A stretch of 36,514 nt of DNA from an uncultured Candidatus Saccharibacteria bacterium (GCA_964637995.1 CAZWXV010000005.1:1-36514); one strand, 5' to 3'; numbered from the stretch's first letter, positions 110 through 17,520 are shown. The notes: generated by a model from the sequence alone, not told the origin. A program made the numbers and translations.

Positions 110-181
110 GGCCCTATCGTCTAACGGTCAGGACATCGGCTTTTCAAGCCGGTAATCCGGGTTCGATTCCCGGTAGGGTCA
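110..181 (+). tRNA. tRNA-Glu (anticodon TTC), CCA not encoded
   Basis: Acceptor GGCCCTA/TAGGGTC, anticodon arm TCGGC-TT TTC AA-GCCGG, T-loop GGTTCGATTCC. Confidence 0.97.
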
Positions 182-352
182 CCGCTACAAAACTGAGCGC
201 TCACAAGAGCGCCTTTTTTGTGCGGTGACCCTAAGCAAGTAAACTGCTTTACTTGCGTCCGGGAAGCGAAAAGCTTTTTAGTATTTATGAAAAATTTATT
301 TTGAATAAATTTAAAAAGGTATACTGTTCCCGTAGGGAAAGATTCCCGGTAG
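165..352 (+). mobile_element. tRNA 3'-end-duplicating hairpin-rich mini-element (putative)
   Basis: Direct repeat GATTCCCGGTAG at 165-176 and 341-352; inverted copy of the tRNA 3' end at 222-233 and 259-270; several internal hairpins. Confidence 0.5.
197..219 (+). terminator. intrinsic terminator after tRNA-Glu
   Basis: GCGCTC-ACAA-GAGCGC followed by CTTTTTT. Confidence 0.65.
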
Positions 353-391
353 TGATTTTAAAAATTTAGTAACTTGTGACCACATAAGCCA

Positions 392-420
392 GGACTCGCA
401 AGGACAGTCCTTGCGGACTC
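392..420. repeat. short palindrome CGCAAGGAC-A-GTCCTTGCG flanked by GGACTC direct repeats
   Basis: 9-bp arms with 1-nt centre (397-415); GGACTC at 392-397 and 415-420. Confidence 0.6.
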
Positions 421-470
421 ATAAAATAGTGTTATTATTATGTAAATAATGACTTTAACTAAAAAACAGA

Positions 471-1694
471 ATGGTTAAAAAAATATCAAAAATAAAACAG
501 CCAAAGAAGTTAAAAAAGGGAGAAGTAAACACGAACATAGATTCTTTCAGGCACATACAGAATATCTTTGAGAATAATATTTTTCTTCACGAAATATCAA
601 TTAAGGAAATTGGGAAACAGGCCCAAAAATATGATAGTAGAAATCTTAAACCGTTTTTAGATATATTGAAGAATAAAGCTAAGGAAAATAAAAAACACAC
701 CAAGGACAAAATAAAACTTAAATTTTCAAAAAGTGAATTACGCAATGCCTCTCAAGTATTTGAGAATGTCATAAAAACACAACCATTACAAGCACATTTA
801 TTTTCAAAAAATACTATAGTATCAATGGTTTCAACTATAGATATTCTACTTTCAAAATTGTTTAGTTTTTATTATAAAAAATACCCAAAAAAATTATCTC
901 TAGAAAATCAATCAATCAGGTTTGAAGAGTTGGAAAATATAGAAAATGTGGAAGAAGCTCAGAAGTTTTTAATTGATAGAGAAATAGAAACTCTGTTAAT
1001 TGAACAGGGGTTAGATCGAAAACTGAAAGTTTTAAGAAAAGATATGGCTCTTAATTTAGACCCAATCAATAAAAATTTAGAAGATCTAAAAAAGTTGATA
1101 AAAATAAGAAATCTTATAGTTCACAATGAAGGAAGAATGGATAAGGAGTATATCAAAAAGTATGGAGACAAAAAAAGCGAACTAAATAAGGACATTATAA
1201 TAGCAGACAAATACTTAAATGATTCGCTTTTATTATTATATTTCATTGGAACTTACATTATTCAAGAAGCTCAGCTTAATTTTTCTGAAGAAATTAAAAA
1301 GAAAAACTTCTTACTAATTAACCCATTGCATTATTTAGTAAAACATGAACAATATCATTTATTAAGACCCATATACAATTTTATTTCAAACCCCAAAATA
1401 AATGCTTCTGAAAAGAAATATATAGTCATTAATTATTGTACTGGATTAAAAAAACAAGGTAAGAAATTGCAAGATATTGAAAAGGTTTTAGAGCTAGAAG
1501 ATTGGAGTTTAACCAGAGATGATTTTGATATGTGTAAAGCTGCCTTATTGGATAAACATACAGTATTTTATAAATACTTAAAAAAATTAATCAAAGCAAA
1601 AACCGTAGGAAAAGAAGAAATAGACGATTGGGCAATTTTCGCTTTTTATAAAAACAAATCTGAATTTAAATCAATAATTAAAAATGCTAAATAG
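471..1694 (+). CDS. AT-rich hypothetical protein with HEPN-like RxxxxH motif (putative RNase/defence effector)
   Basis: 407-aa ORF, motif RNLIVH preceded by helical segments, much lower GC than neighbours, next to a tRNA. Confidence 0.6.
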   Translation: MVKKISKIKQPKKLKKGEVNTNIDSFRHIQNIFENNIFLHEISIKEIGKQAQKYDSRNLKPFLDILKNKAKENKKHTKDKIKLKFSKSELRNASQVFENVIKTQPLQAHLFSKNTIVSMVSTIDILLSKLFSFYYKKYPKKLSLENQSIRFEELENIENVEEAQKFLIDREIETLLIEQGLDRKLKVLRKDMALNLDPINKNLEDLKKLIKIRNLIVHNEGRMDKEYIKKYGDKKSELNKDIIIADKYLNDSLLLLYFIGTYIIQEAQLNFSEEIKKKNFLLINPLHYLVKHEQYHLLRPIYNFISNPKINASEKKYIVINYCTGLKKQGKKLQDIEKVLELEDWSLTRDDFDMCKAALLDKHTVFYKYLKKLIKAKTVGKEEIDDWAIFAFYKNKSEFKSIIKNAK

Positions 1695-1766
1695 GGATAA
1701 TTAAAGCCTTAATATCTCTTATACTGCCAGCAATAAGATTCCAATTCGTAATACAATAGGTCACTC

Positions 1767-2963
1767 ATGGAACCTCAAGAAAACTCTCCAAAAAGATTTC
1801 TCAACGTGCATCCGGACGTGCTCAAACTCGGCGCAGTAAGTTTTTTAACCGACCTCTCCTCCGAGAGCATTTTCTCGGTCTTCTCCGTTTTCTTTACCGT
1901 CATAGTCGGCGCGCCGGCGTCGCTTTTGGGCGTGGTGGAAGGCATCTCCGACCTGTCGGCTTCTTCGCTTGATTATGTTTCCGGCTGGCTCTCGGACCGG
2001 TCCGGAAAGCGGAAACCGCTCTCAATCTCGGGCTATGGATTCTCCACTCTGGCGAAACTGATGCTACTTCTGCCGGCCTCGACCCTCTCCCTCGCATCTT
2101 TTCGGGTCATCGAACGTTTGGGCAAGAGTTTCCGCGGGCCGCCCAGGGATGCCTGGCTCTCGTCCGTAGCGGAGAGCAGTAATAGGGGCTACGCCTTTGC
2201 CCTCCACAAGGCGCTCGACAAAGCGGGGGCAATACTCGGGCCTCTGGTGGCTTATTTTCTGCTACGCGCCTTCGGAGAGAATATGAGCACTTTCAGGATA
2301 CTTTTTATTTTCGCGGTGCTTACCGCGGCGCTTGCGGTCGTGGTTCTCTCTAGGATGAAGGACCGCCCGGGCACCCCTCACGAGCGGGAAAATATTTTTA
2401 AAGCCTGGCGCACGCTTTCCAAAAGCTTTAAAATTTTTCTCATACCGGCGGGAATTTTTTCTCTGGCATATTTCAGCTTCGGGTTTTTACTGCTCCGAGC
2501 GTACCAAGCGGGCTTCGCGATGGCCGATGTGGTACTCCTCTACGCGCTTTTCAATATCTCCTTCGTAGTTTTCTCCGTGCCCATCGGCAAGCTGGGGGAC
2601 AGGGTCGGACGGAAGCTCATAGTTGTTTCCGGCTACATTCTTTACATCGCGATGACGCTCGGATTTATTTTCGCCCAAACGAAAGGGGAGATAATAATCC
2701 TATTTATAGTTTTCGGGATTTTTTATACTATTGACGAAGCGCAGGGCAAAGCGTTTATCGCGGACATGGAGCCGGAGAGAAGAGCGACGGCGGTGGGCTT
2801 TTACAACTTTGCAAACGGCCTCATTTATCTCTTGGCATCAGTCATCGCCGGAGCGCTCTGGGTCTTAAATCCCGCCTACGCGTTTGCTTTTGCCGCCGCG
2901 GTCGCACTGGTCGCTCTGCTTGCATTTTTAACGCTTCAGTCTAGAATGTCAGCATATGTATAA
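1767..2963 (+). CDS. MFS transporter
   Basis: About 12 hydrophobic segments; MFS motif A in both halves (GWLSDRSGKRK, GKLGDRVGRK). Confidence 0.92.
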   Translation: MEPQENSPKRFLNVHPDVLKLGAVSFLTDLSSESIFSVFSVFFTVIVGAPASLLGVVEGISDLSASSLDYVSGWLSDRSGKRKPLSISGYGFSTLAKLMLLLPASTLSLASFRVIERLGKSFRGPPRDAWLSSVAESSNRGYAFALHKALDKAGAILGPLVAYFLLRAFGENMSTFRILFIFAVLTAALAVVVLSRMKDRPGTPHERENIFKAWRTLSKSFKIFLIPAGIFSLAYFSFGFLLLRAYQAGFAMADVVLLYALFNISFVVFSVPIGKLGDRVGRKLIVVSGYILYIAMTLGFIFAQTKGEIIILFIVFGIFYTIDEAQGKAFIADMEPERRATAVGFYNFANGLIYLLASVIAGALWVLNPAYAFAFAAAVALVALLAFLTLQSRMSAYV

Positions 2964-3450
2964 AGTTAAAAGGTTTGAAGTTTTTCACTTGTTTTTCGGA
3001 ATTGTCGGCTTGCTTATATTAGAGGGTGTCTTATTGCAATTTCTGCCATTGACTGGCACGGAAGAAGAGACGATTATTATCTCGTTTACCATTATTGGAA
3101 CGATAGCCAATATGTATGTCGCCATTCAAGCTATTGAAAAAGTGAATAGCCGTTTATCTATGCTTATGTTCCTGTTTCTTATCATTTTAGAGTTTATTGC
3201 TTTTTTCGCTTTTGAGTATTGGTATCTTATACTATTTGAGCCGACGAGTTTCCCTACGGTCGCACCCGATATGTTGAGCCTGCTTTTTCATAGCACCATG
3301 GTATTTGTTTTTAACCCGCTTTTTCTGCCGGCGACGGCAGCAGGAAAGATTCTTCTGCTCGTCAACACTTTAAGTTCCCTTGCTATCGTTATTTTTATAC
3401 TCCAAAACATTTGGCAGTTGCACCATCTGCCCCGCGCAGAACAGCTGTAG
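2956..3450 (+). CDS. membrane protein, possibly degenerate Ion_trans_2-like
   Basis: 164 aa, 4-5 hydrophobic segments, 8-nt overlap with the MFS gene. Confidence 0.65.
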   Translation: MYKVKRFEVFHLFFGIVGLLILEGVLLQFLPLTGTEEETIIISFTIIGTIANMYVAIQAIEKVNSRLSMLMFLFLIILEFIAFFAFEYWYLILFEPTSFPTVAPDMLSLLFHSTMVFVFNPLFLPATAAGKILLLVNTLSSLAIVIFILQNIWQLHHLPRAEQL

Positions 3451-3464
3451 CATTTATCAATTTG

Positions 3465-3551
3465 CGGAGGCGGTGAGATTTGAACTCACGATTGGTTTGC
3501 ACCAATGCCGGTTTTCGAAACCGGTGCCTTCAACCACTCAGCCACGCCTCC
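3465..3551 (-). tRNA. tRNA-Ser (anticodon CGA), long variable arm, CCA not encoded
   Basis: Minus strand GGAGGCG...CGCCTCC-G, anticodon arm CCGGT-TT CGA AA-ACCGG, variable arm ATTGGT-GCAA-ACCAAT, T-loop GTTCAAATC. Confidence 0.96.
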
Positions 3552-3686
3552 TCGCTCCGCTCGTCGGCATGGCTTCGTGTCCTTCGGACACTCCCTATGC
3601 CTGATGCTAAAGCATAGCAGGCATTTTTTGCTTTTGCAAAAACCAGATGAAATATGAAGCAGTTCATATTTCATAGCCACGCCTCC
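3540..3686 (-). mobile_element. tRNA 5'-end-duplicating hairpin-rich mini-element (putative)
   Basis: AGCCACGCCTCC at 3540-3551 and 3675-3686; inverted copy GGCATGGCT at 3566-3574; four internal hairpins. Confidence 0.5.
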
Positions 3687-3714
3687 GTAAGGTGCTCTGT
3701 TATATTACGCTATT

Positions 3715-4641
3715 TTACTTTGCGTTCAAGTGGAGATATATATCTTCCAGCGCGCGGACGGCGTCGCCGGCGGCGATGTTGTTCTGGTGATACAGAACAT
3801 TGGTCGCGTCGCCGGCGGCCCAGATGCCCGGTACCTCGGTTTTCTGGTCCCAGGCGTTGATTTTTATCCGCCCGATTTCGTCGAGCGGCACGAGGCCTTT
3901 TACGAGGTCGGTGTTCGGCAACTGGCCGACTTCCACAAATATGCCCGCGACTTTCAATTCTTTTGTTTTACCGCTCACCTTATCTTTATATACGAGCCCA
4001 TCCACAAATTTATCGCCGGTGACTTCGAGGATATCCGTGTTCTTGAGCACGCTCATTTTGGGATTCTTCAAAACTTTTTCCACGGTCACCTCGTCCGCCT
4101 TAAAGTTCTCGCCGCGTATGAGGAGCGTAACGGATTTGCAGTAAGCCAGAAGCTGAGCGGCCGTTTCAAAGCCGGCGTTGCCGCCGCCCACCACGGCCAC
4201 GTCCATATCCGCAAAGAGCGGACCGTCGCAGGAAGCGCAATAGGTGAGGCCCTTATTCTCGAGCCGGTCCGCGCCTTTCGCGGTGAGCTTTCTGCGCAGG
4301 CTGCCGGTGGTTATTAAAATAGTTTTAGCCTCAAATTCCTTTCCGGTTTCCGTGGTTACAGAAAAAATGTCGCCCTTTTTGGCTACCGATTTCACTTTTT
4401 CCCCTTCCTTTACCTCCAAACTGTCGCCCACATTGGCCATGACGTGCTTTTTGAAATTTTCCGCCAGTTCGTTTCCGGAAAGGGAAACGGTGCCTATCCA
4501 GTTAAAAATTTGCTCGGAAACCACGCTTTGTCCGCCCCACTCGGCAGTAATAAAAAGCGCCTTCATGCGCTTCCGGGCGGCGTACACGGCGGCTGCGGTG
4601 CCTCCCGGCCCTCCGCCGATAATTATCAAATCGTAAGTCAT
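3715..4641 (-). CDS. trxB: thioredoxin reductase-like FAD/NAD(P)H disulfide oxidoreductase (TrxB/AhpF C-terminal family)
   Basis: GGGPGG FAD motif, CASCDG redox centre, VVGGGNAG NAD(P)H motif, GIWAAGD. Confidence 0.88.
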   Translation of the reverse strand: MTYDLIIIGGGPGGTAAAVYAARKRMKALFITAEWGGQSVVSEQIFNWIGTVSLSGNELAENFKKHVMANVGDSLEVKEGEKVKSVAKKGDIFSVTTETGKEFEAKTILITTGSLRRKLTAKGADRLENKGLTYCASCDGPLFADMDVAVVGGGNAGFETAAQLLAYCKSVTLLIRGENFKADEVTVEKVLKNPKMSVLKNTDILEVTGDKFVDGLVYKDKVSGKTKELKVAGIFVEVGQLPNTDLVKGLVPLDEIGRIKINAWDQKTEVPGIWAAGDATNVLYHQNNIAAGDAVRALEDIYLHLNAK

Positions 4642-4769
4642 TTTTCAATTATAACATACAAAGGCGCGCATAATAATTTTAGAGCACACATAAAATTCTG
4701 CAGAATTTTTGTTCATGCTCAGCCCGTCGGCCTCCGCAAGTCTCTAAAATCATCACGCGCGCCTTAATG

Positions 4770-5954
4770 CTATTTCTTATTGCGTCGGAGAAATGCCGGT
4801 ACGGCGCTCCAGTCACTATCCTCATCTTCTATGATTACTTCTTCCTTTTGTTCTTTTTTATCGGACTTCTTTACAAAATCATTCGCGCCGGCAGACCCGA
4901 GTATCGTGTTATGTATTTCCTTTTTTGCGGCAGTAGCGTTGTCTTCTTTTAAGGGTGTGCCCGTGCCTAAGCCAAACAGGCTTTTTCTTGGCATGTCCGT
5001 AGGGAAGCTCGTGGCGATGACGGTGACCTTGATTTCGCCCTTTTTAAGCTTGGGGTCATGGATGGTTCCAAAGATGACCTTGGCGTCTTTGTCGATTGAT
5101 TCCGTGATGATTTTCGCGGCTTCCTGTATTTCGCTGATAGTGAGTTCGTCCTCGCCGCCGGAAATGGCAAACAGCACGCCCTTGGCCCCGTGGATGGAAA
5201 CTTCGAGGAGCGGGGAGTTGATGGCCGCAAGCGCCGCTTTCTCCGCGCGTTTCTCGCCGGAGGCGCTTCCGATGCCCATCAAAGCCGAACCGGCATTGGC
5301 CATCACGGCCTTGATGTCCGCAAAGTCCACATTGATGACACCCGGAGTGGTTATGAGGTCGGCGATGCCTTCCACCGCCTGCCTCAATACATCGTCGCAT
5401 TTCCGGAAAGCATCTTTAAAGTTTATGTTTTTTTCCGCGAGCTGAAGCAGTTTGTCATTTGGGATGATTATAATGGCGTCGACTTCCTTCGCGAGCTCCT
5501 CGATGCCTTTCTCGGCGATTTTCATACGCTGACTGCCTTCGAAGAAGAACGGCTTGGTGACTACTGCAACCGTGAGTATGCCTTGTTCCCGCGCAGCGCG
5601 CGCCACGATAGGCGCTGCGCCCGTGCCCGTGCCGCCGCCCATACCGCAGGCAAGGAATATCATATCCGCGCCTTTGACCACGTCCTGTATCTCGGACTTG
5701 GTTTCTTCCGCAGCCTTTTTGCCGATATCCGGATCCATGCCGGCGCCCAGGCCTTTGGTGAGATTTTTACCGATATGTATCTTTTTCTCCGCGAGCGAGT
5801 GATGCAGGTCCTGCGTGTCCGTGTTCATGGCTATGAAGGTCACACCCCTGACCTTCTCATTTATCATATGATTTACAGCGTTTTTTCCGGATCCGCCGAT
5901 ACCGACGACCATAATGCGGGCAAAACTCTCGATGGCTTGGTTTACTTTTGGCAT
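4770..5954 (-). CDS. ftsZ: cell division GTPase FtsZ
   Basis: GMGGGTGTG tubulin signature, NVDFAD T7 loop, C-terminal VPAFLR peptide. Confidence 0.99.
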   Translation of the reverse strand: MPKVNQAIESFARIMVVGIGGSGKNAVNHMINEKVRGVTFIAMNTDTQDLHHSLAEKKIHIGKNLTKGLGAGMDPDIGKKAAEETKSEIQDVVKGADMIFLACGMGGGTGTGAAPIVARAAREQGILTVAVVTKPFFFEGSQRMKIAEKGIEELAKEVDAIIIIPNDKLLQLAEKNINFKDAFRKCDDVLRQAVEGIADLITTPGVINVDFADIKAVMANAGSALMGIGSASGEKRAEKAALAAINSPLLEVSIHGAKGVLFAISGGEDELTISEIQEAAKIITESIDKDAKVIFGTIHDPKLKKGEIKVTVIATSFPTDMPRKSLFGLGTGTPLKEDNATAAKKEIHNTILGSAGANDFVKKSDKKEQKEEVIIEDEDSDWSAVPAFLRRNKK

Positions 5955-6034
5955 AATTTTTCTTGCGACTTGATAGTTAACTTATATAAATACTACACTA
6001 ACAGAAAGCAGGAAAAAGTAAAGCCAAGAAAATC

Positions 6035-10702: not shown

Positions 10703-10722
10703 GCACGACCTCCTATAATGGC

Positions 10723-10751: not shown

Positions 10752-10768
10752 GCAGAATCGAGCAAATC

Positions 10769-10794: not shown

Positions 10795-10801
10795 CGTGAG
10801 T

Positions 10802-11263
10802 TTATTTATTGTCTAGTTTAAAATCCACATCGCTTGTGACAGCGGGTTCTTCTTCTGAATGCTTTAGAGTTTCTCCGGTAGTATCTAATTCAAAATCTCT
10901 GCCAGCCTTGGCTGGTGGAGCATTGTCGTTTTCATAGCTATTGCTATTTTCGCTATCATCGCCAGGCAAGCCAAAACGATCTATAAGGAGTTTTACGAGC
11001 TTGGAATTTTCTTTTGGTGGAGCCCAGTCGTTTTTGCTTCGATTGGTCCAACTTACTCCACCTGAAGCAGGGGCAAGGGTCTGCCACTTATCTCTATAAG
11101 TAGTAAGTATCTCTCGTATATCTACGTTCGGGCTTAAGCCCAATATGCCGATAATTCTTTCTTTGGTTCTTTGCGAAATTACAGGCAGAGCGACGAACTC
11201 GGGACCGGGAAGGGTTTCCGGTCCGTCTTCTCTTCTGATCGGAATATGCTCGGCAGTACTCAT
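10802..11263 (-). CDS. hypothetical protein (153 aa, acidic disordered C-terminus)
   Basis: ORF with CATAAT 6 nt before ATG and a downstream terminator. Confidence 0.65.
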   Translation of the reverse strand: MSTAEHIPIRREDGPETLPGPEFVALPVISQRTKERIIGILGLSPNVDIREILTTYRDKWQTLAPASGGVSWTNRSKNDWAPPKENSKLVKLLIDRFGLPGDDSENSNSYENDNAPPAKAGRDFELDTTGETLKHSEEEPAVTSDVDFKLDNK

Positions 11264-11321
11264 GCTTTAATTATGTCACTTTGTTATAAATTGGCAAGCT
11301 CCGGCGGGGGGGGGGAGGGAG

Positions 11322-11330
11322 TTATCCACA
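11322..11330 (+). promoter_or_regulatory. perfect DnaA box
   Basis: TTATCCACA just upstream of the mraZ promoter. Confidence 0.55.
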
Positions 11331-11339
11331 GGGGAGGGT

Positions 11340-11402
11340 TTGCCTTGTTTTGGGGTTGGTTTATAATGCTAATGAAGTGGGAAAAAGTGGGAAATCTGTG
11401 GA
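11340..11402 (+). promoter_or_regulatory. mraZ promoter and MraZ-binding repeats
   Basis: TTGCCT...TATAAT (11362-67); GTGGG/GTGGG/GTGGA at 11377, 11387 and 11398, ~10-bp period as known for MraZ operators. Confidence 0.8.
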
Positions 11403-11424
11403 AAACGTATTTTAATCAAAAACC

Positions 11425-11865
11425 ATGCTTATCGGCGAGTACATTCACACAATAGATGAAAAGAACCGGGTTTCTATGCCGGCGAAATTTCGGAAAGAAC
11501 TCGGGAAGAAAATCATTATTACGCCGGGGCTGGGGCAATGCCTGTTCATCTTCACGACTGCTGAGTGGGCGAAAGTGAGCAAGAAACTTTCCGACTCGGA
11601 TTCCAACCTGTCTTTTCTCAAGGCCGACCAGCGAAGTTTCAACCGATATATGTTCGGACGCGCGGCGGAGGTGGAGCTCGATTCGATTGGACGGATGCTC
11701 ATTCCGGAATTTCTGCAAGCAGGTATCCGGCTTCGGGACAAAGCGGCGATTATCGGAGTTAAAGACAGGGTTGAGATTTGGAACGAAAAAGCATGGAGCG
11801 AACAGAAAGATAAAGTGGCCAAAGAAGCGGAGCAATTGGCGGAGAAGCTCGGAACAGGTTCGTAA
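11425..11865 (+). CDS. mraZ: transcriptional regulator MraZ
   Basis: GEYIHTIDEKNR, DSIGR-x-LIP, RVEIW; precedes rsmH. Confidence 0.97.
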   Translation: MLIGEYIHTIDEKNRVSMPAKFRKELGKKIIITPGLGQCLFIFTTAEWAKVSKKLSDSDSNLSFLKADQRSFNRYMFGRAAEVELDSIGRMLIPEFLQAGIRLRDKAAIIGVKDRVEIWNEKAWSEQKDKVAKEAEQLAEKLGTGS

Positions 11866-11872
11866 AAAGATA

Positions 11873-12766
11873 ATGCCAAGCAAACACCTGCCAGTTCTTT
11901 TAAAGGAAACAATAGAGGGTTTAAATTTAGGACCGAAGGCAGTGGTTGTAGATTGCACATTTGGCGGCGGAGGGCATAGCATGGAGATTTGTAAAAGATT
12001 TCCAAATACAAAAATAATTGCCCTCGACCAAGACAAAAGTGTTTTTGAAAAAGCCCAAAGTAAGTTCAAAGATTTGAATTGCAATATAACTTTCGTCAAC
12101 GCGAACTTCAGGGATTTAAATAAAGTTGTAAAAGATGAAGTTAATGCAATTATTTTTGATTTAGGCTTGAGTTCCGACCAACTGGAGAATTCCGAACGGG
12201 GATTTTCTTTCATCCGACGTGAGCCGCTTCTCATGACGATGAAGGAAAATCCCTCTCCGGAAGACCTGACGGCATATGATGTCGTCAATACTTGGGAGGA
12301 GAAAAGTTTGGCCGATATTATCTACGGCTACGGTGAAGAAAAGCTAAGCCGCAAGATTGCTAAAGCAATCGTGGAAGCGAGAGAGAAGGCGGACATCAAG
12401 ACCACGTTTGATTTAGTGGCAATAATAGAAGGTGCAGTAGGCAGGGCATATAAAAAACAAAAATTGCACTGTGCTACCCGAACTTTCCAAGCTCTGCGCA
12501 TCGCAGTGAATGACGAGCTCGGGGCGCTAAAGGCAGGCCTCTGGGCCGGGTTCGAAAAGTTGAAACCGGGCGGCAGGATGGCGGTTATATCTTTCCACAG
12601 TCTGGAGGACAGGATAGTGAAGAATTTTTATAAAGAAAAAAAGGCGGAGGGCGGGGCGGTGCTTATTAACAAAAAACCGATAACGCCCGGCGAGGCCGAA
12701 ATAAAAGAAAATCCGCGGTCCCGGAGCGCAAAATTAAGAATTTTAGAAAAACAACAAAAACAATGA
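11873..12766 (+). CDS. rsmH: 16S rRNA m4C1402 methyltransferase RsmH
   Basis: HLPVLLKE, DCTFGGGGHS, DLGLSS, TFQALRIAVNDEL, ISFHSLEDR, NPRSRSAKLR; start taken at ATG 11873. Confidence 0.97.
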   Translation: MPSKHLPVLLKETIEGLNLGPKAVVVDCTFGGGGHSMEICKRFPNTKIIALDQDKSVFEKAQSKFKDLNCNITFVNANFRDLNKVVKDEVNAIIFDLGLSSDQLENSERGFSFIRREPLLMTMKENPSPEDLTAYDVVNTWEEKSLADIIYGYGEEKLSRKIAKAIVEAREKADIKTTFDLVAIIEGAVGRAYKKQKLHCATRTFQALRIAVNDELGALKAGLWAGFEKLKPGGRMAVISFHSLEDRIVKNFYKEKKAEGGAVLINKKPITPGEAEIKENPRSRSAKLRILEKQQKQ

Positions 12767-13122
12767 GAGAAGCGAGCTTAAAACTTTACAGGGGAATGCA
12801 AAACGTCAATATTATGAACAATAATGTTGATATGCCGCGGGCTGTTCTCCGGGCCATGCTTTCCACGCTCGGGCTGCTCTGCCTGACCTATGCGCTTCTT
12901 TTGGGGTTCATGGTCTGGAACATTGTAGAAAGGAAAAATCTGGAAAAAGAGGCTCAGGCCTTGTCTGCCCTAGTTGGTGACCTGGAACTCGAATATTTGT
13001 CGGTATCCGGCTCGATTGATATGGAACTTTCACGCTCTATGGGCTTTGAGGAAGCGCGCGCCAGTTTCGCGCCGCGCGAGAAAGCTCTCGGAAGCCTCGA
13101 GCTTTCTCGCAATGAAATCTAG
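12763..13122 (+). CDS. single-TM coiled-coil protein, positional FtsL-like
   Basis: TM followed by heptad segment; lies between rsmH and ftsI; ATGA overlap. Confidence 0.65.
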   Translation: MREASLKLYRGMQNVNIMNNNVDMPRAVLRAMLSTLGLLCLTYALLLGFMVWNIVERKNLEKEAQALSALVGDLELEYLSVSGSIDMELSRSMGFEEARASFAPREKALGSLELSRNEI

Positions 13123-14815
13123 TTTTTTGCTTCGCTCGAGGGTGGTCGCTTTTTTACTGATATTGTTTTCCGCGGCAGTGGTGACCCGGCTTTTTTGGGT
13201 GCAGGTAGTCCATGGCGATTATTATTCCGGAGAGGCGGACCGCCAGTATGTTACCCCCTCCCAGAACGTTTATGAGCGCGGCACGGTCTACTGGCAGCGC
13301 AAGGACGGTGAACTCATTTCCGCCGCCGCGCAGATATCCGGCTTCAAGCTTACGATCAATCCCATGAAAATTACCGATGCGGCCGAAGTTTATAAAAAAG
13401 TTAACGCGATAATTCCGATGTCCCGCGAAGATTTCTTGTCGAAGGCCTCAAAAGAGAATGACCCTTATGAAGAAGTTGCCCAGCGTTTAACCCGCGAAAC
13501 CGTGGATGCTGTCTCCGCGCTAAAAATCCCCGGGTTGAGCGTTTTCAAAGAAAAGTGGCGTTCTTATCCCGGAGGCGACCTGGCGGCGCACACCCTGGGT
13601 TTCGTGGGTTACAAGGGCGACGAACTCGGCGGGCGCTACGGCTTGGAGCGGCAGTACGACCGGGAGTTGTCCCGGGGCGCAAATGAACCGTACGTGAACT
13701 TTTTCGCGGAAGTATTTTCCAATATTCAAAAAAGTTTCAGGGAAGAAGATAAAGAAGGGGATATAGTGACTACCATCGAGCCCAAAGTGCAGAGCTTACT
13801 CCAAGGCAAACTGGAGGAGGTGAAAGAAAAATATTCGGTGGATCTCGTTGGCGGCATCATAATGGATCCGCGCGACGGTTCCATTTACGCGCTGGCAGCC
13901 CTGCCCGCTTTTGACCCTAATAAATTTTCCGTTGCCGCAAACAATCAGATCTTTTCCAATCCGCTGGTGGAAAACGTGTTCGAGTTCGGCTCCGTGGTCA
14001 AGCCGCTGGTCATGGCCGCGGCGCTGGACACCGGCGCGGTAACGGCCAAGACCACCTATACCGACAGCGGCTCGGTAAAAGTCGAGAAGAAAGAAATATT
14101 CAATTTTGACAAGAAGGGGCGGGGTCCTGGCACGACCATGCAGGATGTCTTAAACCAGTCGCTCAACACCGGTATGGTCTTCGTCGAACAAAAACTGGGC
14201 AAACAAAAAATGCGGGAATATCTCCTGGGATACGGCATCAAAGAGAAGACCGGCATCGACCTGCCCAACGAAACTTCGGGCCTGGTTTCCGGAATTTTGA
14301 ATAGTCCGCGCGAGATTGAATATGCCAACGCTGCCTTCGGGCAGGGCATAGCGCTTACTCCGGTGGGGCTCGCCCGCGCGCTCGCCTCTCTCGGGAACGG
14401 CGGCAATCTAGTAACGCCCCACGTTGTGGAAGAAATAAAATATACGGATGGGGGATTCAAAAAAATGATTTACCCCACGGTGCCCACGAAGATAACCCCC
14501 CAAACCTCGGATGAAATCACCCGCATGCTGGTCACGGTAATGGATAAAGGTATTGGCAAGCCCCTGGAACATTTTAGTGTCGCCGCAAAAACAGGCACCG
14601 CTCAAGTTGCGGACAGCGAGAACGGCGGTTATTATACAGACAGGCATACGCATTCTTTTTTCGGTTATTTTCCGGCATACGACCCCGAGTTCATTGTCTT
14701 TTTATATGCCATCAATCCCAAGGGTGTTCAGTATGCCGCGACCACTTGGTCCGACCCGTTCGTGGATATCACCAAGTTTCTCTTGAATTATTATAGTATT
14801 CCGCCGGACCGTTAG
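13112..14815 (+). CDS. ftsI: class B penicillin-binding protein (FtsI/PBP2 family)
   Basis: N-terminal TM; SVVK (SxxK), SLN (SxN) and KTGTAQ motifs; start taken at ATG 13112. Confidence 0.92.
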   Translation: MKSSFLLRSRVVAFLLILFSAAVVTRLFWVQVVHGDYYSGEADRQYVTPSQNVYERGTVYWQRKDGELISAAAQISGFKLTINPMKITDAAEVYKKVNAIIPMSREDFLSKASKENDPYEEVAQRLTRETVDAVSALKIPGLSVFKEKWRSYPGGDLAAHTLGFVGYKGDELGGRYGLERQYDRELSRGANEPYVNFFAEVFSNIQKSFREEDKEGDIVTTIEPKVQSLLQGKLEEVKEKYSVDLVGGIIMDPRDGSIYALAALPAFDPNKFSVAANNQIFSNPLVENVFEFGSVVKPLVMAAALDTGAVTAKTTYTDSGSVKVEKKEIFNFDKKGRGPGTTMQDVLNQSLNTGMVFVEQKLGKQKMREYLLGYGIKEKTGIDLPNETSGLVSGILNSPREIEYANAAFGQGIALTPVGLARALASLGNGGNLVTPHVVEEIKYTDGGFKKMIYPTVPTKITPQTSDEITRMLVTVMDKGIGKPLEHFSVAAKTGTAQVADSENGGYYTDRHTHSFFGYFPAYDPEFIVFLYAINPKGVQYAATTWSDPFVDITKFLLNYYSIPPDR

Positions 14816-14816
14816 T

Positions 14817-14863
14817 GCCCCCAAGTCGGACTTGTGGGTTTCCCACAAGTCCGACTTGGGGGC
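14817..14863. repeat. 47-bp nested palindromic element, intergenic copy
   Basis: Perfect 22-bp inverted repeat GCCCCCAAGTCGGACTTGTGGG-TTT-CCCACAAGTCCGACTTGGGGGC. Confidence 0.9.
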
Positions 14864-14873
14864 GACAAATCAA

Positions 14874-16178
14874 ATGAAAAATATTTTAAAACAAATTCTC
14901 GCTTATATTTTAAAAACCGAGTCCCGGCTTGTGCTTTGGAAATACCAGCCGCGAGTTATTGTCATTACCGGCTCGGTCGGGAAGACCTCGACCAAAGACG
15001 CGGTCTATGCCGTGCTATCCGCTCTTTCCTACGTGCGCAAAAGCGAAAAAAGTTTTAATTCCGAGATAGGGCTGCCGCTCTCCGTGCTCGGGATTCCGAA
15101 CGGCTGGAGCAACCCTCTCGTTTGGACCTCAAATATTTTGCGGGGGCTCTGGCTTTTCATCTGGCCCCATAAGTATCCGAAGTGGCTCGTGCTGGAAGCG
15201 GGCGTGGGCAAGCCGGGGGACATGAGAAAAACCGCCGCCTGGCTTAGGGCGGATGCGGTCATCGTTACCGCTATCAGCGAAACTCCCGTGCATATAGAAT
15301 TTTTCGATTCCCGTGAGCATCTGATAGAAGAGAAATCAGCGCTCATCCGGACGCTCAAGCCCGGCGGTCTCTTGGTACTCAACCACGACGACGAAGCGGT
15401 TCGGAAGATGAAGGAAAAAACCAAGTGCCGGAGCATCGCCTTCGGCTTCTCCGAAGGTGCGGACATCCGCGGTTCCGGCGACAATATTTCCTACAATGAA
15501 AAGAATGAGCCGGAGGGCGTCATATTCCGGGTAGATGCGGAAGGCAAAAGTCTGCCGGTGGTAATAGACGGTGTTTTTGGCAGGAATCATATTTATGCTT
15601 CGCTTGCGGCGCTAGCGCTCGCCTCCGGATTCAAGTGGAATCTCTTGTCCGCCGCAGATTCTCTCCGGGATTACGATGTGCCGCCCGGACGCATGCGCCT
15701 GGTTAAGGGAATAAAAAAGTCCCTTATAATAGATGATACATACAATTCTTCGCCCGTGGCCTGCGAGGGAGCCCTTAAGACACTCGGGGAAATAAAATGC
15801 AGGGTCGAGGGCTGCCGGAAGATCGCTGTCCTGGGAGACATGCTCGAGCTCGGCAAGCACACTATCGAGGCGCATAAAAATATCGGGCGGCTCACAAAAG
15901 AAAACGCAGAAGCGGTGATAGTTGTGGGGCAGAGGGCAAAAAACATAGCGGAAGGCGCGCGGGAAGCGGGCATGCGCGCGGATTCCATTTTCGAGTGCGT
16001 TGATTCGCGCGGGGCGGGAGAATTCCTCAAAACTTTTGTGCAAAAAAACGACATCGTGCTCATCAAAGGCTCGCAGGGCATGCGCATGGAGCGCGCGGTG
16101 GAACAGATAATGCTGGAACAGGACAGCAAAGAAAAACTTCTGGTCCGGCAGGATCCCGAATGGCGCGCCAAGGAATAA
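14874..16178 (+). CDS. murF: UDP-MurNAc-tripeptide--D-Ala-D-Ala ligase MurF
   Basis: ITGSVGKTSTK, NSEIGLP, IDDTYNSSP, LGDMLELG, LIKGSQG; start taken at ATG 14874. Confidence 0.95.
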   Translation: MKNILKQILAYILKTESRLVLWKYQPRVIVITGSVGKTSTKDAVYAVLSALSYVRKSEKSFNSEIGLPLSVLGIPNGWSNPLVWTSNILRGLWLFIWPHKYPKWLVLEAGVGKPGDMRKTAAWLRADAVIVTAISETPVHIEFFDSREHLIEEKSALIRTLKPGGLLVLNHDDEAVRKMKEKTKCRSIAFGFSEGADIRGSGDNISYNEKNEPEGVIFRVDAEGKSLPVVIDGVFGRNHIYASLAALALASGFKWNLLSAADSLRDYDVPPGRMRLVKGIKKSLIIDDTYNSSPVACEGALKTLGEIKCRVEGCRKIAVLGDMLELGKHTIEAHKNIGRLTKENAEAVIVVGQRAKNIAEGAREAGMRADSIFECVDSRGAGEFLKTFVQKNDIVLIKGSQGMRMERAVEQIMLEQDSKEKLLVRQDPEWRAKE

Positions 16179-16187
16179 ATCACTCGG

Positions 16188-16544
16188 ATGAAAGATTTAA
16201 CTCCGGAAGAAAAAAGAGTAATTATTGACAAGGGGACAGAAGCGCCGTTTATGGGCGAGTACGTGAACAATAAAGAGACCGGCGTGTATGTGTGCCGCCA
16301 ATGCGAGGCCCCGCTTTATAATTCGAAGGACAAATTTGAATCGCACTGCGGTTGGCCTTCCTTTGATGACGAGATACCGGGGGCGATAAAGAAAACTTTG
16401 GACGCGGACGGAGCGCGCACCGAGATAACCTGTGCCAAATGCGGCGGCCACCTAGGGCATCTTTTTACCGGCGAAGGATTTACAAAAAAAAATTTGCGGC
16501 ACTGTGTCAATTCCATATCCATGAAATTCGTGCCCGGGAAATAG
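16188..16544 (+). CDS. msrB: peptide-methionine (R)-S-oxide reductase MsrB
   Basis: GTEAPF, CxxC pairs, CGWPSF, GHLGHLF, RHCVNS. Confidence 0.97.
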
Positions 16545-16646
16545 CATTATTGTTCTACAGCTATCTCTAACAGAAACATAGGGGCGTATTGCCCCTAGAC
16601 ACTTTTTTGATAAGTAGTATAACTAAATGGAACAAGGAGGTGTTCC

Positions 16647-16871
16647 ATGAGATGCTCTTGGTGCCGCGGTTTTTTCTTCGCGGATGACATTATGGTCAAC
16701 TGCGACGGCCAGTGGTTCCATGCCCGGAAAGGCATGGGCTGTAGCTGTTTTTGCCTGTACAGGCAGGCAAAATACGCCCCCGACCCGTGTGTGGGGTGCA
16801 CGGCCCGGATGCTTGTCTGCGACAAGCCCCACAGCCTCCCAGCACTCCCCAACACCACCCGGATTTGCTAG
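16647..16871 (+). CDS. small Cys-rich putative zinc-binding protein (74 aa)
   Basis: AAGGAGGT SD before ATG; TAGACA...TATAAC promoter-like upstream; CxxC...H...CxC...CxxC. Confidence 0.6.
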   Translation: MRCSWCRGFFFADDIMVNCDGQWFHARKGMGCSCFCLYRQAKYAPDPCVGCTARMLVCDKPHSLPALPNTTRIC

Positions 16872-16930
16872 TTACCGGATAAAAACTAGCACCATTTTAC
16901 ACTAATAAGTTTATACCCGGAACAATCGCG

Positions 16931-17254
16931 CTAGTGGCCTTCGTTCGCAGACTTTAAGTGAATGTAAACCCGGCGATAATTGCGCTTCTCTACCTTTTGC
17001 CCATTTTCATCCACATCCAAATGGTATATATCGCAGATACGCCCGTCTAAATTTATATTGCTCAGTACCAGATTGTAGCCGGATGCCGCTGCCGGGGCCG
17101 CATTTCCGGTTATTACGTCATTGAAGGGAGGTAATATCTTCTCCGCGCCTATTTTTCTCAGTGCATCAACCCAAGGCTTAACCCCAAATAAAAAGATTTC
17201 TTCTGTAGGCTCTGTAGGCGGTTTGTTTGGTTGTGGCGTCGCTCTTTCCAACAT
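16931..17254 (-). CDS. hypothetical protein (107 aa)
   Basis: ORF with TG-n-TATAAT 6 nt before ATG, downstream of the tRNA-Glu element. Confidence 0.65.
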   Translation of the reverse strand: MLERATPQPNKPPTEPTEEIFLFGVKPWVDALRKIGAEKILPPFNDVITGNAAPAAASGYNLVLSNINLDGRICDIYHLDVDENGQKVEKRNYRRVYIHLKSANEGH

Positions 17255-17278
17255 GTTCAGATTATAACACAGATTTTA

Positions 17279-17466
17279 GTGTGACCTCACGGGGAATCGC
17301 GAGTACGCTTTCGGTCACAAGTCTTTTTCTGCTGAAAAAGCTCGCGACCCCGTCTCGCGCCGCCGCGCTCCGGCTTTCGATTCTCGCCGTATGGCGATCA
17401 CGAGCGACGCAAAAAGCACTAGAGAAAATCCGGTGCTTTTTGGTCGTGTGACCTCACGGGGAATCG
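17279..17466 (-). mobile_element. tRNA 3'-end-duplicating hairpin-rich mini-element (putative)
   Basis: 21-bp direct repeat GTGTGACCTCACGGGGAATCG at 17279-17299 and 17446-17466; inverted TTCGATTC at 17376-83; internal hairpins. Confidence 0.6.
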
Positions 17467-17520
17467 AACCCCGATTTGGAGCTTGAGAAGCTCCCGTCCT
17501 AGCCGTTAGACGATGAGGCC
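17449..17520 (-). tRNA. tRNA-Glu (anticodon CTC), CCA not encoded
   Basis: Minus strand GGCCTCA...TGAGGTC-A, anticodon arm GGAGC-TT CTC AA-GCTCC, T-loop GGTTCGATTCC. Confidence 0.97.

Follow-up and report, generated by a model that had tools for sequence, protein, structure and literature searches.

Resemblance to described systems

The T-loop is where many tRNA-targeting recombinases place the crossover, and a partial tRNA 3′ copy that starts in the T-loop is the classical footprint of integration. Such attL/attR footprints of phages, ICEs and genomic islands are among several described systems that resemble the modules found next to tRNA genes in DNA of an uncultured Candidatus Saccharibacteria bacterium. 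The modules have a common layout, running from the tRNA end through a hairpin, an inverted copy of that end (the anti-end) and a conserved multi-hairpin core to a direct copy of the end (the end copy). As with attL/attR, the tRNA 3′ part is directly repeated from the T-loop onward, the intact gene flanking one side and a displaced fragment the other, and one finds tandem accretion at a single tRNA and breaks of synteny at the tRNA. However, the modules are gene-less, measure 70–250 nt, and lie in a genome with no integrase except an Xer-like enzyme. They also have an internal inverted copy of the tRNA end, 5′-end versions and covarying, conserved hairpin cores, and they occupy about half of the tRNAs of one genome.

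REP, BIME and REPIN sequences with RAYT (HUH Y1), and the ERIC, Correia, RUP and BOX repeats, provide a second comparison. They too are short, ORF-less, multi-copy and intergenic, with hairpins on one strand, lineage expansions and assembly breaks. In contrast, the modules conserve the apex and not the stem, their closing stems are locus-specific and mostly derived from tRNAs, and they show no association with a RAYT-like gene. The integron attC and the CTX-phage attP(+) resemble the modules in that the site exists only once inverted copies on the same strand pair, in the extra hairpin that breaks one arm, and in the inverted arm kept at one junction upon integration. The modules differ in targeting a tRNA gene end and not attI or dif, in lacking an integron integrase, and in that many have no full-length inverted arm.

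Other likenesses concern RNA. In the modules of type A, anti-end and end copy can form a helix resembling an acceptor plus T-stem, with a single hairpin at the point from which the tRNA body would project, as in the tRNA-like domain of tmRNA and the tRNA-like structures at viral 3′ ends; and, as in rRNA intervening sequences and RNase III leader-trailer stems, long stems adjoin a stable RNA gene. Yet the module helix runs over the discriminator and the trailer, has no T-loop, and matches the neighboring tRNA gene instead of one fixed identity. Finally, the GA-rich hairpin upstream of tRNA-Ser-CGA (3536–3598) aligns to the 3′ hairpin of the Rfam model GA-cis (RF02987; 26.6 bits, E ~7e-4), but the score is under the gathering cut-off of 34.7 and the 3′ strand of the hairpin is here the tRNA-Ser's own 5′ end.

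Three modules in one window

The window (the whole stretch of 36,514 nt that was analyzed) contains exactly three tRNAs according to ARAGORN and Rfam: tRNA-Glu(TTC) at 110–183 on the plus strand, and tRNA-Ser(CGA) at 3464–3551 and tRNA-Glu(CTC) at 17448–17520 on the minus strand. A preliminary description had reported at each of them a direct repeat of the tRNA terminus, an internal inverted copy of it, and a hairpin-rich filler devoid of a credible ORF, all of which the analysis bears out. The direct repeats are exact: 12 nt at Glu-TTC (165–176, in the tRNA 3′ part, and 341–352; spacing 176), 12 nt at Ser-CGA (3540–3551, nt 1–12 of the tRNA, and 3675–3686; spacing 135), and 21 nt at Glu-CTC (17446–17466 and 17279–17299; spacing 167). 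The Ser-CGA repeat is of the tRNA 5′ end and lies upstream of the gene; this element is a mirror-image version of the other modules. As to the inverted copies, 222–233 at Glu-TTC pairs with 174–185 as part of a 28-nt imperfect palindrome (174–201/206–233), 3566–3574 at Ser-CGA (AGCCATGCC) complements tRNA nt 4–12 with one G.U, and Glu-CTC has only a short one, 17374–17384, which complements part of the T-loop and T-stem. Hairpins are many in the fillers (fold z-scores of −6.8, −8.5, and −7.2 for the three regions relative to shuffles), and their longest ORFs with a start codon have 36, 43, and 55 aa. The fillers had also been called unrelated in sequence, which does not stand: those of Glu-TTC and Ser-CGA have a loop-CTGC hairpin in common, the tail of Glu-TTC (366–381) and the Glu-CTC core share a ...ACTTGTGACC motif, and conserved families are involved (see following).

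The Glu-TTC module (type A, plus strand) includes at the apex of its palindrome (174–233) a G+C-rich hairpin between an A-run and a T-run (195–213), terminator-like on both strands. The anti-end (222–233) corresponds, as reverse complement, to 174–185, which comprises the acceptor 3′ strand, the discriminator, and the trailer. The H hairpin (235–256; 9 bp, loop CTGC) has compensatory changes at 8/9 pairs in the type A alignment, and is succeeded by a complement of the T-stem 3′ strand and T-loop (CCGGGAAGC) with a conserved GAAAAG (259–273). A variable long stem-loop, S, occupies 274–317, here of the subtype with ...TATTTATGA...TGAATAAAT..., which is also present at Glu tRNAs in three other families. 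A conserved GGTATACTG with a 5-bp hairpin (318–339; loop GTA, compensatory changes at 4/5 pairs) precedes the truncated copy of the tRNA 3′ part (341–352). The type A covariance model, R2, matches 220–359 with 138.9 bits, the sequence itself being in the model seed. The tail (366–420) has the motif TTAGTAACTTGTGACC, as at the 3′ ends of type B cores, and a hairpin (393–420) that recurs after tRNA-Asn on contig C1, where the downstream stretch is laid out as it is here.

In the Glu-CTC module (type B, minus strand), a hairpin between an A-run and a T-run lies directly after the tRNA (17411–17441) and is absent from the list of the terminator scan. It is followed, within 17374–17396, by a small hairpin (17385–17396) and AGAATCGAAAG (17374–17384), the complement of the T-loop and the 3′ part of the T-stem. 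The type B core (17310–17381; covariance model R1, 94.3 bits, sequence in the seed) comprises a short stem around a 4-bp hairpin with a GGA/GA internal loop, then GGGG, and a 16-bp hairpin with an invariant G.U and the loop CAGCAG. The end copy (17279–17299) is here a full one, from the T-loop to 2 nt past the tRNA end. A module after tRNA-Glu-TTC in a relative, G004, is a homolog of the Glu-CTC filler (72% over 244 nt), its tRNA-derived parts being altered to suit its own tRNA. A second, divergent type B element lies at 4660–4765 on the minus strand (core 4679–4745, 32.3 bits), between ftsZ and trxB; no tRNA adjoins it, and an inverted repeat of ~19 nt, specific to this locus, closes it.

The Ser-CGA module lies 5′ of its gene, on the minus strand. 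Its anti-end (3566–3574) forms the GA-rich hairpin with the tRNA 5′ end, and is preceded in transcription order by three leader-module hairpins (3577–3591, 3598–3623, and 3624–3642, within 3577–3642), a 12-bp H hairpin with the loop CTGC (3647–3674), of the same kind as 235–256, and the copy of tRNA-Ser nt 1–12 (3675–3686). Further upstream, at 3702–3729 on the minus strand, TTGAAC-16 nt-TAATAT is promoter-like by eye (8/12 matches) and absent from the scan-tool list.

Families, folding and dynamics of the modules

All three fillers are members of structured families that are conserved and present in many copies. Within the order, a group of small-genome bacteria in which the repeat family is widespread, R1 (the type B core) matches 124 of 151 genomes, with up to 32 scored copies per genome, and R2 (type A) 111 of 151. 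A system, as opposed to random scars, had been anticipated, and this distribution supports it. The claim that all three of three tRNAs carry an element is nevertheless true of the window only, as a module is found at 6 of the 37 tRNAs of this genome (G000). A direct repeat of at least 12 nt occurs genome-wide only at the three tRNAs of the window and at one tRNA-Met, excluding two adjacent tRNA-Thr paralogs that match each other. Some G000 copies adjoin scaffold gaps (C14 7245–7254, C20 region).

The tie to tRNAs is close. A co-oriented tRNA ends at most 330 nt upstream of 60/100 R1 copies, and only 3 have just a tRNA on the opposite strand; 18 of the 26 R2 copies inspected follow a tRNA. In the complete genome G071, 24/27 hits are no more than 400 nt downstream of a tRNA in the same orientation, 16 tRNAs being covered, and 19/36 tRNAs have a downstream direct copy of at least 11 nt of their 3′ part, versus 97/2000 random segments. 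In relatives, comparable layouts are found after tRNAs for Ala, Arg, Cys, Asp, His, Phe, and Glu, and the tRNA-derived parts match whichever tRNA adjoins. The S subtype is found at Glu in 4/5 cases, across families, a 5′ module of tRNA-Asn is present in G029, G058, and G063, and the G000 copies are much diverged from one another (94 to 21 bits). Such same-tRNA subtypes across families and diverged copies fit old, vertically kept, and possibly functional modules.

Among the 133 R1 matches, 97.4% of the cells pair, against 74.4% in shuffles, and compensatory changes are seen at 21/23 pairs, counts that are biased towards structure because the alignment was fitted to the model. One G.U pair of the core is kept in 119/125 sequences. 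The covariation and this invariant G.U point to folding of the tRNA-sense strand. Mismatches between tRNA end and anti-end are symmetric (G.U 26, A.C 24), which fits copying and decay at the DNA level better than selection at the RNA level. In the stem between end copy and anti-end, G.U (46) exceeds A.C (27); this excess, the invariant G.U, and the fixed orientation relative to tRNAs suggest selection on the folded sense strand. Alternative states exist, since in minimum-energy folds the partner of the anti-end is the actual tRNA end, and that of the end copy is the opposite acceptor strand.

The copies also show dynamics at the DNA level. In G058, copies at different loci are 100% and 98.9% identical over 91–93 nt and some cores are nested within others; G010 has two tandem 135-nt Ser leader units differing at 3 positions; in G015 the Ser leader unit is placed at tRNA-Ser-GCT instead; and tRNA-Gln has a module in G029 and none in G147, even though the tRNA is identical and the region upstream is conserved. 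The near-identity of copies, their nesting and tandem arrangement, and presence or absence among congeners point to proliferation as DNA. In all three Ser cases the end copy equals nt 1–12 of the neighboring tRNA, including G010 despite its decayed anti-end. Among 50 copies of the module, the direct copy is long in 18, the inverted one in 10, both in 4, and neither in 10, and long direct and long inverted copies tend to exclude each other (Spearman −0.30, p 0.03). Sequence shared between copies extends over about 160 nt at most.

The only tyrosine recombinase of the genome is Xer-like; no serine recombinase, reverse transcriptase, or IS110 transposase was found in it, and no integrase in the modules. 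A Y1/HUH transposase-like gene is present in 76/124 genomes with the element and in 15/27 without it, hence shows no association, and this RAYT-like gene has its own, different flanking palindrome. The modules have no match in phage or plasmid collections, and viral contigs gave one real hit, at a contig end. A probe for the empty Glu-CTC site had no hits in metagenome contigs, which drop rare variants, and the compared genomes yielded no orthologous pair, one member filled and the other empty, that conserves both flanks. The preliminary interpretation is thus partly supported: the system, the tie to tRNA ends, and the lack of an ORF and an integrase stand, together with signs of spread at the DNA level, while the fillers are not unrelated, three of three does not extend to the whole genome, and neither co-occurrence with HUH transposases nor empty sites were found. 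Cis-acting RNA modules and decoy sites, which it named as alternatives, may still apply.

Explanations of the module family

Our preferred explanation, held with about even confidence, is that the three loci are copies of a short (~70–250 nt), ORF-less, strand-specifically folded repeat family that colonizes tRNA ends in this order. It draws on what was observed of layout, family membership, tie to tRNA ends, tRNA-matched parts, folded core, and copy-number dynamics. The unit is a conserved multi-hairpin core clamped by a stem, whose tRNA-proximal strand is the anti-end and whose far strand is the end copy. It is placed after the terminator-like hairpin on the 3′ side, or between promoter and tRNA on the 5′ side, and the functional tRNA remains intact; the direct repeat of 12–21 nt consists of the tRNA end together with a twin that was displaced or copied from it. 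As no integrase, no HUH link, and no population empty site was found, we infer the mechanism: the elements would propagate and turn over as DNA with no enzyme of their own taking part. The sequence they share with tRNAs (T-loop/T-stem on the 3′ side, nt 1–12 on the 5′ side) would seed recombination, slippage, or templated copying. The tailoring to each tRNA would result from copying the adjacent tRNA end, directly or inverted. The sense strand of at least the 5′-side copies would be co-transcribed with the tRNA, the hairpin forming beside it. The unique closing stems of copies away from tRNAs are left unaccounted for.

Possibly, though with less than even probability, the modules are instead host cis-acting RNA modules, in which tRNA end, anti-end, and end copy pair alternatively in the precursor transcript. 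The core-capped hairpin would then serve processing (e.g., as a long stem for a double-strand RNase), termination, insulation from neighboring genes, or regulated maturation, and the direct repeat would arise as a side effect of the two pairings that the anti-end has to satisfy. The strong covariation of the core and its invariant G.U on the tRNA-sense strand, the alternative folds, the G.U excess in the copy:anti-end stem, and a module orientation that is always that of the tRNA agree with this, as do the persistence of the families across >100 families of the order and the presence of such copies at over half of the tRNAs in G071. The 5′-side copies lie between the promoter-like site and the tRNA and, on this argument, would have to be transcribed. 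On the 3′ side, however, a terminator-like hairpin precedes the module, which may therefore be missing from most tRNA transcripts; a long anti-end and a long end copy occur together in only 4/50 copies, which makes a complete three-part switch the exception. Moreover, the G010 end copy is still identical to the tRNA although its anti-end decayed, occupancy differs among congeners, and many tRNAs do without a module (31/37 in G000).

It is improbable that the modules are folded single-strand attachment sites, whereby the element moves as a small, (transiently) single-stranded DNA. End copy and anti-end would pair and imitate the duplex end of a tRNA gene, with which the host Xer-like tyrosine recombinase would exchange strands, in the manner of the CTX phage (dif) and of integron cassettes (attC). 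The conserved core would be a recognition or priming structure. The order of parts (tRNA end, loop, anti-end, core, end copy) is that of the single-crossover product between a hairpin site and a tRNA, a topological argument; tandem and nested arrays exist, the end copy begins in the T-loop, the fold is strand-specific and tolerates G.T, and the Xer-like enzyme is the only recombinase present. But in 18/50 copies a long end copy goes with a short anti-end, hence there is no full duplex mimic there. On a 680-kb contig of G058, orientation alternates with the local tRNAs and does not obviously follow the replication arm, the 5′-side copies need a second type of target, and the phage, plasmid, and viral sequences offered a single real hit.

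Scars of larger elements are very improbable. On this reading, integrase-bearing phages, plasmids, or islands would have entered the tRNAs, restored the 3′ end, and later lost all but the sequence adjacent to att. Consistent with this, the partial 3′ copies begin in the T-loop, the G000 Glu-TTC module is followed by low-G+C variable orphan genes (270–1750, 24–30% G+C, with one 407-aa ORF that belongs to no family), the orphan ORF next to tRNA-Glu-TTC in G010 is a different one, and synteny between G029 and G147 breaks at the tRNA 3′ end. Against it, no full-length integrase element was found among ~290 loci, shared sequence is limited in length as stated above, and it would take hundreds of independent, precise deletions to the same 70–250 nt. 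Inverted, 5′-end, and non-tRNA copies are unexpected in integrase scars, as are covarying stems in duplex protein-binding arms.

Chance similarity or an assembly artifact, to which the metagenome-derived contig and the copies beside scaffold gaps (C14 7245–7254, C20 region) might give rise, has a negligible probability and is refuted as far as the data allow: only 95/4977 random 75-nt segments of the genome (1.9%) have a direct repeat of at least 12 nt within 500 nt, from which we calculate a chance expectation of ~7e-6 for three of three. Artifact is unlikely for the window repeats because an independent contig set (run X1, possibly from the same sample) covers 14839–17497, including the Glu-CTC module, with zero differences, and the same layouts recur in >100 further assemblies, single-contig genomes included.

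Modules at the tRNA genes of the window

The source genome (G000) is a draft of 703,564 bp in 28 contigs, of which the window is contig C5 (36.5 kb); genome sizes are uniformly 0.4–1.2 Mb in the samples drawn from its order and phylum. Sequencing runs listed as containing the sequence include groundwater metagenomes and no RNA run; the groundwater origin and the small genome sizes would suit a bacterium of the candidate-phyla-radiation type. ARAGORN and Rfam both identify three tRNA genes in the window: tRNA-Glu-TTC (110–183, forward strand), tRNA-Ser-CGA (3464–3551, reverse strand), and tRNA-Glu-CTC (17448–17520, reverse strand). At each of them a tRNA end is repeated exactly and in direct orientation, over 12 nt at Glu-TTC (165–176 and 341–352), 12 nt at Ser-CGA (3540–3551 and 3675–3686, the tRNA 5′ end), and 21 nt at Glu-CTC (17279–17299 and 17446–17466). 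The intervening fillers hold a stretch complementary to the tRNA end (222–233 for Glu-TTC, 3566–3574 for Ser-CGA, and a short one, 17374–17384, for Glu-CTC), contain no ORF longer than 55 aa, and fold with z-scores of −6.8 to −8.5 relative to shuffles. The layout given in the preliminary description (direct repeat, internal inverted copy, hairpin-rich filler, no credible ORF) is therefore found at all three genes.

The same description noted that three of three tRNAs carry such an element. Among random 75-nt segments of G000, 95 of 4977 have a direct repeat of at least 12 nt within 500 nt, so that a chance origin at all three window tRNAs is not credible. The proportion stands inside the window and does not extend to the genome, where modules adjoin 6 of 37 tRNAs: Glu-TTC and Asn (type A), Glu-CTC, Arg-GCG, and Lys-TTT (type B), and Ser-CGA (on the 5′ side). 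Of all 37 tRNAs of G000, only the three in the window and one tRNA-Met have a direct repeat of at least 12 nt, leaving out two adjacent tRNA-Thr paralogues that match each other.

The fillers had been considered unrelated in sequence, and this must be revised, as BLAST against G000 and side-by-side reading relate them to multi-copy families. The Glu-TTC filler is similar in part to the region behind tRNA-Asn on contig C1, and about 68 nt of the Glu-CTC filler recur on contigs C20 and C23. A side-by-side comparison of the regions following the Glu-TTC and Asn tRNAs gives a shared order of parts, called type A: the tRNA 3′ end; an A-run, a G+C hairpin, and a T-run; the reverse complement of the acceptor 3′ strand, discriminator, and trailer; a 9-bp hairpin with the loop CTGC (the H hairpin); GT; the reverse complement of the T-stem 3′ strand and T-loop; GAAAAG; a long variable stem-loop; GGTNTACTG; a 5-bp hairpin with the loop GTA; AGA; and a second copy of the tRNA 3′ part. 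In relatives this order follows Ala, Arg-CCT, Arg-TCT, His, and Asn tRNAs, and the tRNA-derived parts are altered each time to suit the adjoining tRNA. The Glu-CTC filler represents type B, consisting of a terminator-like hairpin, a T-loop/T-stem complement (which often reaches over the whole tRNA 3′ end), CGAAAG, a core of 60–70 nt, and a 3′-part copy. It is most closely related to a module that follows tRNA-Glu-TTC in the congeneric genome G004, with 72% identity over 244 nt and the tRNA-derived parts switched to tRNA-Glu-TTC.

The Ser-CGA filler is a mirror image located at the tRNA 5′ end (the Ser leader module). Read on the tRNA strand, it comprises a promoter-like TTGAAC-16-TAATAT, a copy of tRNA nt 1–12, an H hairpin with the loop CTGC, three hairpins, AGCCATGCC (the complement of tRNA nt 4–12), a GA-rich loop, and then the tRNA. 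The promoter-like assignment of TTGAAC-16-TAATAT was made by eye, with 8 of 12 matches, and a promoter scan did not list it. GGTATACTG was rejected as a −10 box, given that A, C, or G can occupy its second position and that it is spaced 13 nt from TTGAAT. In Rfam 15, only the tRNAs reach the gathering cut-off on the three loci, and no family does so on any module. By E-value the best non-tRNA match is a sub-threshold one, between the GA-rich hairpin at tRNA-Ser-CGA and GA-cis (26.6 bits for a cut-off of 34.7); GA-cis does not appear in the searchable main texts of the papers listed, its published description being in supplementary files. A hammerhead-like or other known ribozyme core was discarded as giving no Rfam signal. 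The layout of the modules may equivalently be described as an insertion that brings a new tRNA-gene end or as an adjacent hairpin with a stem that repeats the tRNA end.

Conserved folds and association with tRNAs

The type B consensus fold, obtained from an alignment of ten core sequences, has a 3-bp stem around a 4-bp hairpin with a GGA/GA internal loop, followed by GGGG and by a 16-bp hairpin with one bulged A. Among the 133 matches aligned to the covariance model of this core (R1), 97.4% of cells pair; shuffles reach 74.4% and slid partners no more than 52.7%. The alignment is fitted to the model and favours the structure in such counts. Compensatory changes affect 21 of 23 pairs in these matches, and one pair is G.U in 119 of 125 sequences. 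This G.U pair identifies the tRNA-sense strand, in the form of RNA or single-stranded DNA, as the one that folds. Of the 14 pairs predicted for the H and GTA-loop hairpins of type A, 12 show compensatory changes among nine sequences. Type B thus displays both compensatory pairs and a strand-specific wobble, the signs expected of a structured single-strand element, and type A displays the compensatory pairs.

At E up to 1, R1 has 11 matches in G000; it is present in 124 of 151 genomes drawn from the order, with up to at least 32 copies per genome, and in only 6 of 150 other genomes drawn across the phylum. The type A model (R2) matches 2 places in G000 and is present in 111 of the 151 genomes, with up to 21 scored copies per genome. 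Both families are absent from at least nine genomes among those listed. These figures come from drawn samples of non-independent kin, with rough model E-values and ARAGORN tRNA calls. The early suggestion of a system rather than of random scars is borne out by this prevalence in the order.

The window itself holds a second and divergent type B copy (4679–4745, reverse strand), which lies between ftsZ and trxB, is not beside a tRNA, and has a locus-specific closing inverted repeat. The tie to tRNAs can be assessed on 100 distinct type B copies of at least 60 bits, drawn from the 30 best R1 loci, 60 chosen places in ten genomes, and earlier loci, a set biased to high scores and to ten genomes picked for many copies. 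A co-oriented tRNA ends at most 330 nt upstream of 60 copies, involving 30 different anticodons, 3 copies have an opposite-strand tRNA only, and for 25 a tRNA starts at most 330 nt downstream. A pattern search of 29 loci (4 of them without a match) provided 26 type A copies, of which 18 follow an ARAGORN-detected tRNA and several others come after what is recognisably a tRNA 3′ end, with no tRNA called there. In a crude count based on rough ORF calling, 24 of 34 cores have the same orientation as the next protein-coding gene.

The complete genome G071 (742,714 bp, 36 tRNAs found) was analysed whole. Twenty-four of its 27 model matches lie at most 400 nt downstream of a co-oriented tRNA, and 16 tRNAs are covered. 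Independently of the models, 19 of the 36 tRNAs are followed within 400 nt by a direct copy of at least 11 nt from their own 3′ part (97 of 2000 for random segments), beginning at tRNA positions 50–66, and 15 of the 36 have an inverted copy of at least 11 nt downstream (52 of 2000).

Signs of turnover, known element classes, and rival explanations

There is about an even chance that the modules are a proliferating repeat family, spread and tailored by recombination or by templated copying seeded by tRNA-shared sequence. The folded core would multiply at the DNA level, and recombination or templated copying would start from the sequence in common with the tRNA. Tandem units, nesting, near-identical copies, and gain or loss between congeners favour this reading, as do end copies that match the tRNA exactly even where a pairing partner is missing, and symmetric mismatches between the tRNA and the inverted copy (the anti-end).

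Copies at separate loci of G058 are 100% and 98.9% identical over 91–93 nt, and whole units are nested there inside the hairpins of other units; G122 and G052 each have their own near-identical subfamily. Sequence shared between G058 copies is never above approximately 160 nt, and hence there would be no longer parent element. MITEs differ in this respect, as no longer element related to the modules was found; moreover, the module closing stems vary by locus instead of being conserved terminal inverted repeats, and the duplications are tRNA-derived and 12–24 nt long, not short target duplications of fixed length. By BLAST, the Ser leader module is found in 3 genomes of the genus among 25 searched (G000, G010, and G015), with any match in 7 of the 41 genomes searched overall. 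In G010 it forms a tandem of two 135-nt units, with 3 differing positions between them, and in G015 the unit is at tRNA-Ser-GCT. Although nt 1–12 of the adjoining tRNA differ among these three genomes, the upstream copy is identical to them in each case, in G010 despite a decayed complementary stretch.

Congeners differ in module occupancy, with flanks that are not conserved. G147 and its congener G029 have an identical tRNA-Gln with 88% identity upstream, and G147 lacks the module. At these two loci (L115 in G029, L238 in G147), homology stops exactly at the tRNA-Gln 3′ end and different genes follow; tRNA 3′ ends act as synteny breakpoints here. What follows tRNA-Glu-CTC varies in the genus of G000: type B in G000, another layout in G002, and nothing recognisable in G009, G020, and G015. 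A synteny search of the genus gave no empty Glu-CTC site, only MsrB being common with G009, where the tRNA is inverted relative to MsrB, and a probe for the empty site had no match in metagenome contigs. Four contig sets over the window contain no joint removing a module, although contigs do not reflect rare variants; the same sets contain tRNA-Glu of other organisms joined directly to an H hairpin (joint 182 to 233).

Fifty type B copies lying within 130 nt of a tRNA were compared. Of these, 18 have only a long direct copy of the tRNA end, 10 only an inverted one, 4 both, and 10 neither; long direct and long inverted copies tend to exclude each other (Spearman −0.30, p 0.03). Mismatches between tRNA end and anti-end are 24 A.C and 26 G.U. 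In the stem formed by the end copy and the anti-end, G.U (46) exceeds A.C (27).

This excess of G.U in the closing stem is among the observations that would fit a host function of the folded sense strand, which we consider rather unlikely. The others are the conserved core with its invariant G.U, the fixed orientation relative to the tRNA, the persistence of modules throughout the order, and the recurrence of one subtype at Glu tRNAs of four families and of one 5′ module at tRNA-Asn of three. In minimum-energy folds of full-length transcripts, the anti-end pairs with the real tRNA end and the end copy completes the acceptor stem. Therefore the modules, if transcribed, could compete with tRNA folding, unless co-transcriptional folding avoids it.

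A further proposal, which we also consider rather unlikely, is that of a new class of self-tailoring, enzyme-less tRNA-end elements. The core would dock via its mimic of the T-loop/T-stem (or of the 5′ end) and acquire direct and inverted end copies by templated copying or single-strand recombination; the host may use the end, anti-end, and decoy hairpins for folding or processing of tRNA precursors. Such docking and copying would allow one family to occupy most tRNA genes without destroying them.

tRNA genes are classical landing sites of mobile DNA, and the known cases are kilobase elements with integrases. A search of the literature, as far as its texts are accessible, found nothing on tRNA-flanking repeats in these bacteria. 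Like such integrative elements, the modules leave an intact tRNA with a direct repeat of its 3′ part, at Glu-TTC, at Glu-CTC, and at the 19 G071 tRNAs; unlike them, the Ser-CGA module duplicates the tRNA 5′ end. They also differ in encoding no integrase, since the ORF-poor fillers carry none and the sole tyrosine recombinase of G000 (its only PF00589 match) is a 318-aa protein, Xer-like by NCBIfam, on another contig, scoring 128.4 bits as integron integrase for a cut-off of 265. G000 has no match to serine recombinases (PF00239), reverse transcriptases, or IS110 transposases, and a retroelement origin was rejected for want of a reverse transcriptase.

A test of co-occurrence with HUH transposases had been suggested as well, and the counts speak against such co-occurrence: Y1_Tnp is present in 76 of the 124 genomes with R1 matches and in 15 of the 27 without, assuming the same 151 genomes in both draws, as shared handles support. 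Four genomes (G029, G052, G043, and G067) have 15–24 copies each and no Y1 match. The modules differ in this from REP/REPIN–RAYT systems, and also in the surroundings of the RAYT-like gene of G000, where the flanks carry another palindrome, CACAGGGGAACCCTGTG, and not the module repeats. This gene (REP-associated tyrosine transposase-like, 237 aa) is on contig C28, at 1240–1953 of locus L047 (reverse strand), and matches NCBIfam NF047646 at 41.9 bits (cut-off 80) and Pfam Y1_Tnp at 33.7 bits (cut-off 23); the palindrome copies are at about 1250–1270, 1960–1980, and 2615–2650.

A bolder and more specific reading, in which the Xer-like enzyme would use the module as a folded single-strand attachment site, is improbable; the order of parts fits it, in a comparison with integron attC or CTX-type folded sites made by sequence layout. 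Still less probable are scars of larger elements, which fit poorly. Neither module has a match in phage and plasmid collections. Among viral contigs, the type B pattern gives 4 loci, one real (L048) and three by chance, and a degenerate type A pattern gives 60 loci, one of which has a 5-bp hairpin at the right place. L048 is an IMG/VR contig of 34.7 kb classed as viral. Its last 500 nt, which reach the contig end, contain two tandem modules that have an H hairpin and a type B-like core and lie between copies of a 3′ end resembling that of tRNA-Ser/Leu. An artefact also fits poorly and has a negligible probability; an independent contig, possibly from the same sample, crosses the Glu-CTC module without any difference.

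Up to half of the tRNA genes of these very small genomes carry a tiny gene-less module that matches the tRNA in question, with a structure kept across more than 100 families. Were the modules mobile, target recognition and tailoring would proceed without an element-encoded enzyme, and the tailoring mechanism would become testable. As host RNA elements, they would amount to a so far overlooked level of tRNA precursor handling in a major lineage of uncultivated bacteria. Under either reading they would account for assembly breaks and pseudo-tRNA fragments in these genomes as well as for the loss of synteny at tRNAs, and genome annotation of such organisms should allow for them.

Other features near the tRNA genes

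In G000, tRNA-Glu-TTC and tRNA-Ser-CGA are convergent and 3.3 kb apart (110–3551), whereas in four relatives, G010 (contig C2, L289), G038 (L004), G039 (L008), and G071, they are divergent neighbours; hence this region of the window is rearranged. Directly after the Glu-TTC module, the stretch 270–1750 has 24–30% G+C, versus about 47% in the genome. Its 407-aa ORF (471–1694) has no match in Pfam, NCBIfam, or PHROGs, and its Atlas clusters are only "hypothetical". G010 has in a similar place beside tRNA-Glu-TTC an orphan 530-aa ORF, unrelated to that of the window. Low G+C is also found at 20001–21000 (0.33), which covers an RmuC-family gene (20265–21464), and at 30001–31000 (0.37).

Elsewhere in G000, a 24-nt copy of the tRNA-Met 5′ end lies 106 nt upstream of the tRNA (contig C13, 13045–13150), followed by a degenerate stretch resembling a D-arm and anticodon arm and lacking the conserved cores; it looks like a 5′-half pseudogene. 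On contig C20 (750–1012), ARAGORN predicts a tRNA-Ser with the unusual anticodon ACT, with an inverted 19-nt tRNA fragment and a scaffold gap upstream, and on contig C14 (7217–7430) a scaffold gap separates tRNA-Arg-GCG from the type B module. The repeats at these two places seem to break assemblies. In G039, downstream of the tRNA-Glu-TTC module of L008, tandem repeats of CTGACCCCATTTTCC are interleaved with a repeated stretch of about 50 nt.
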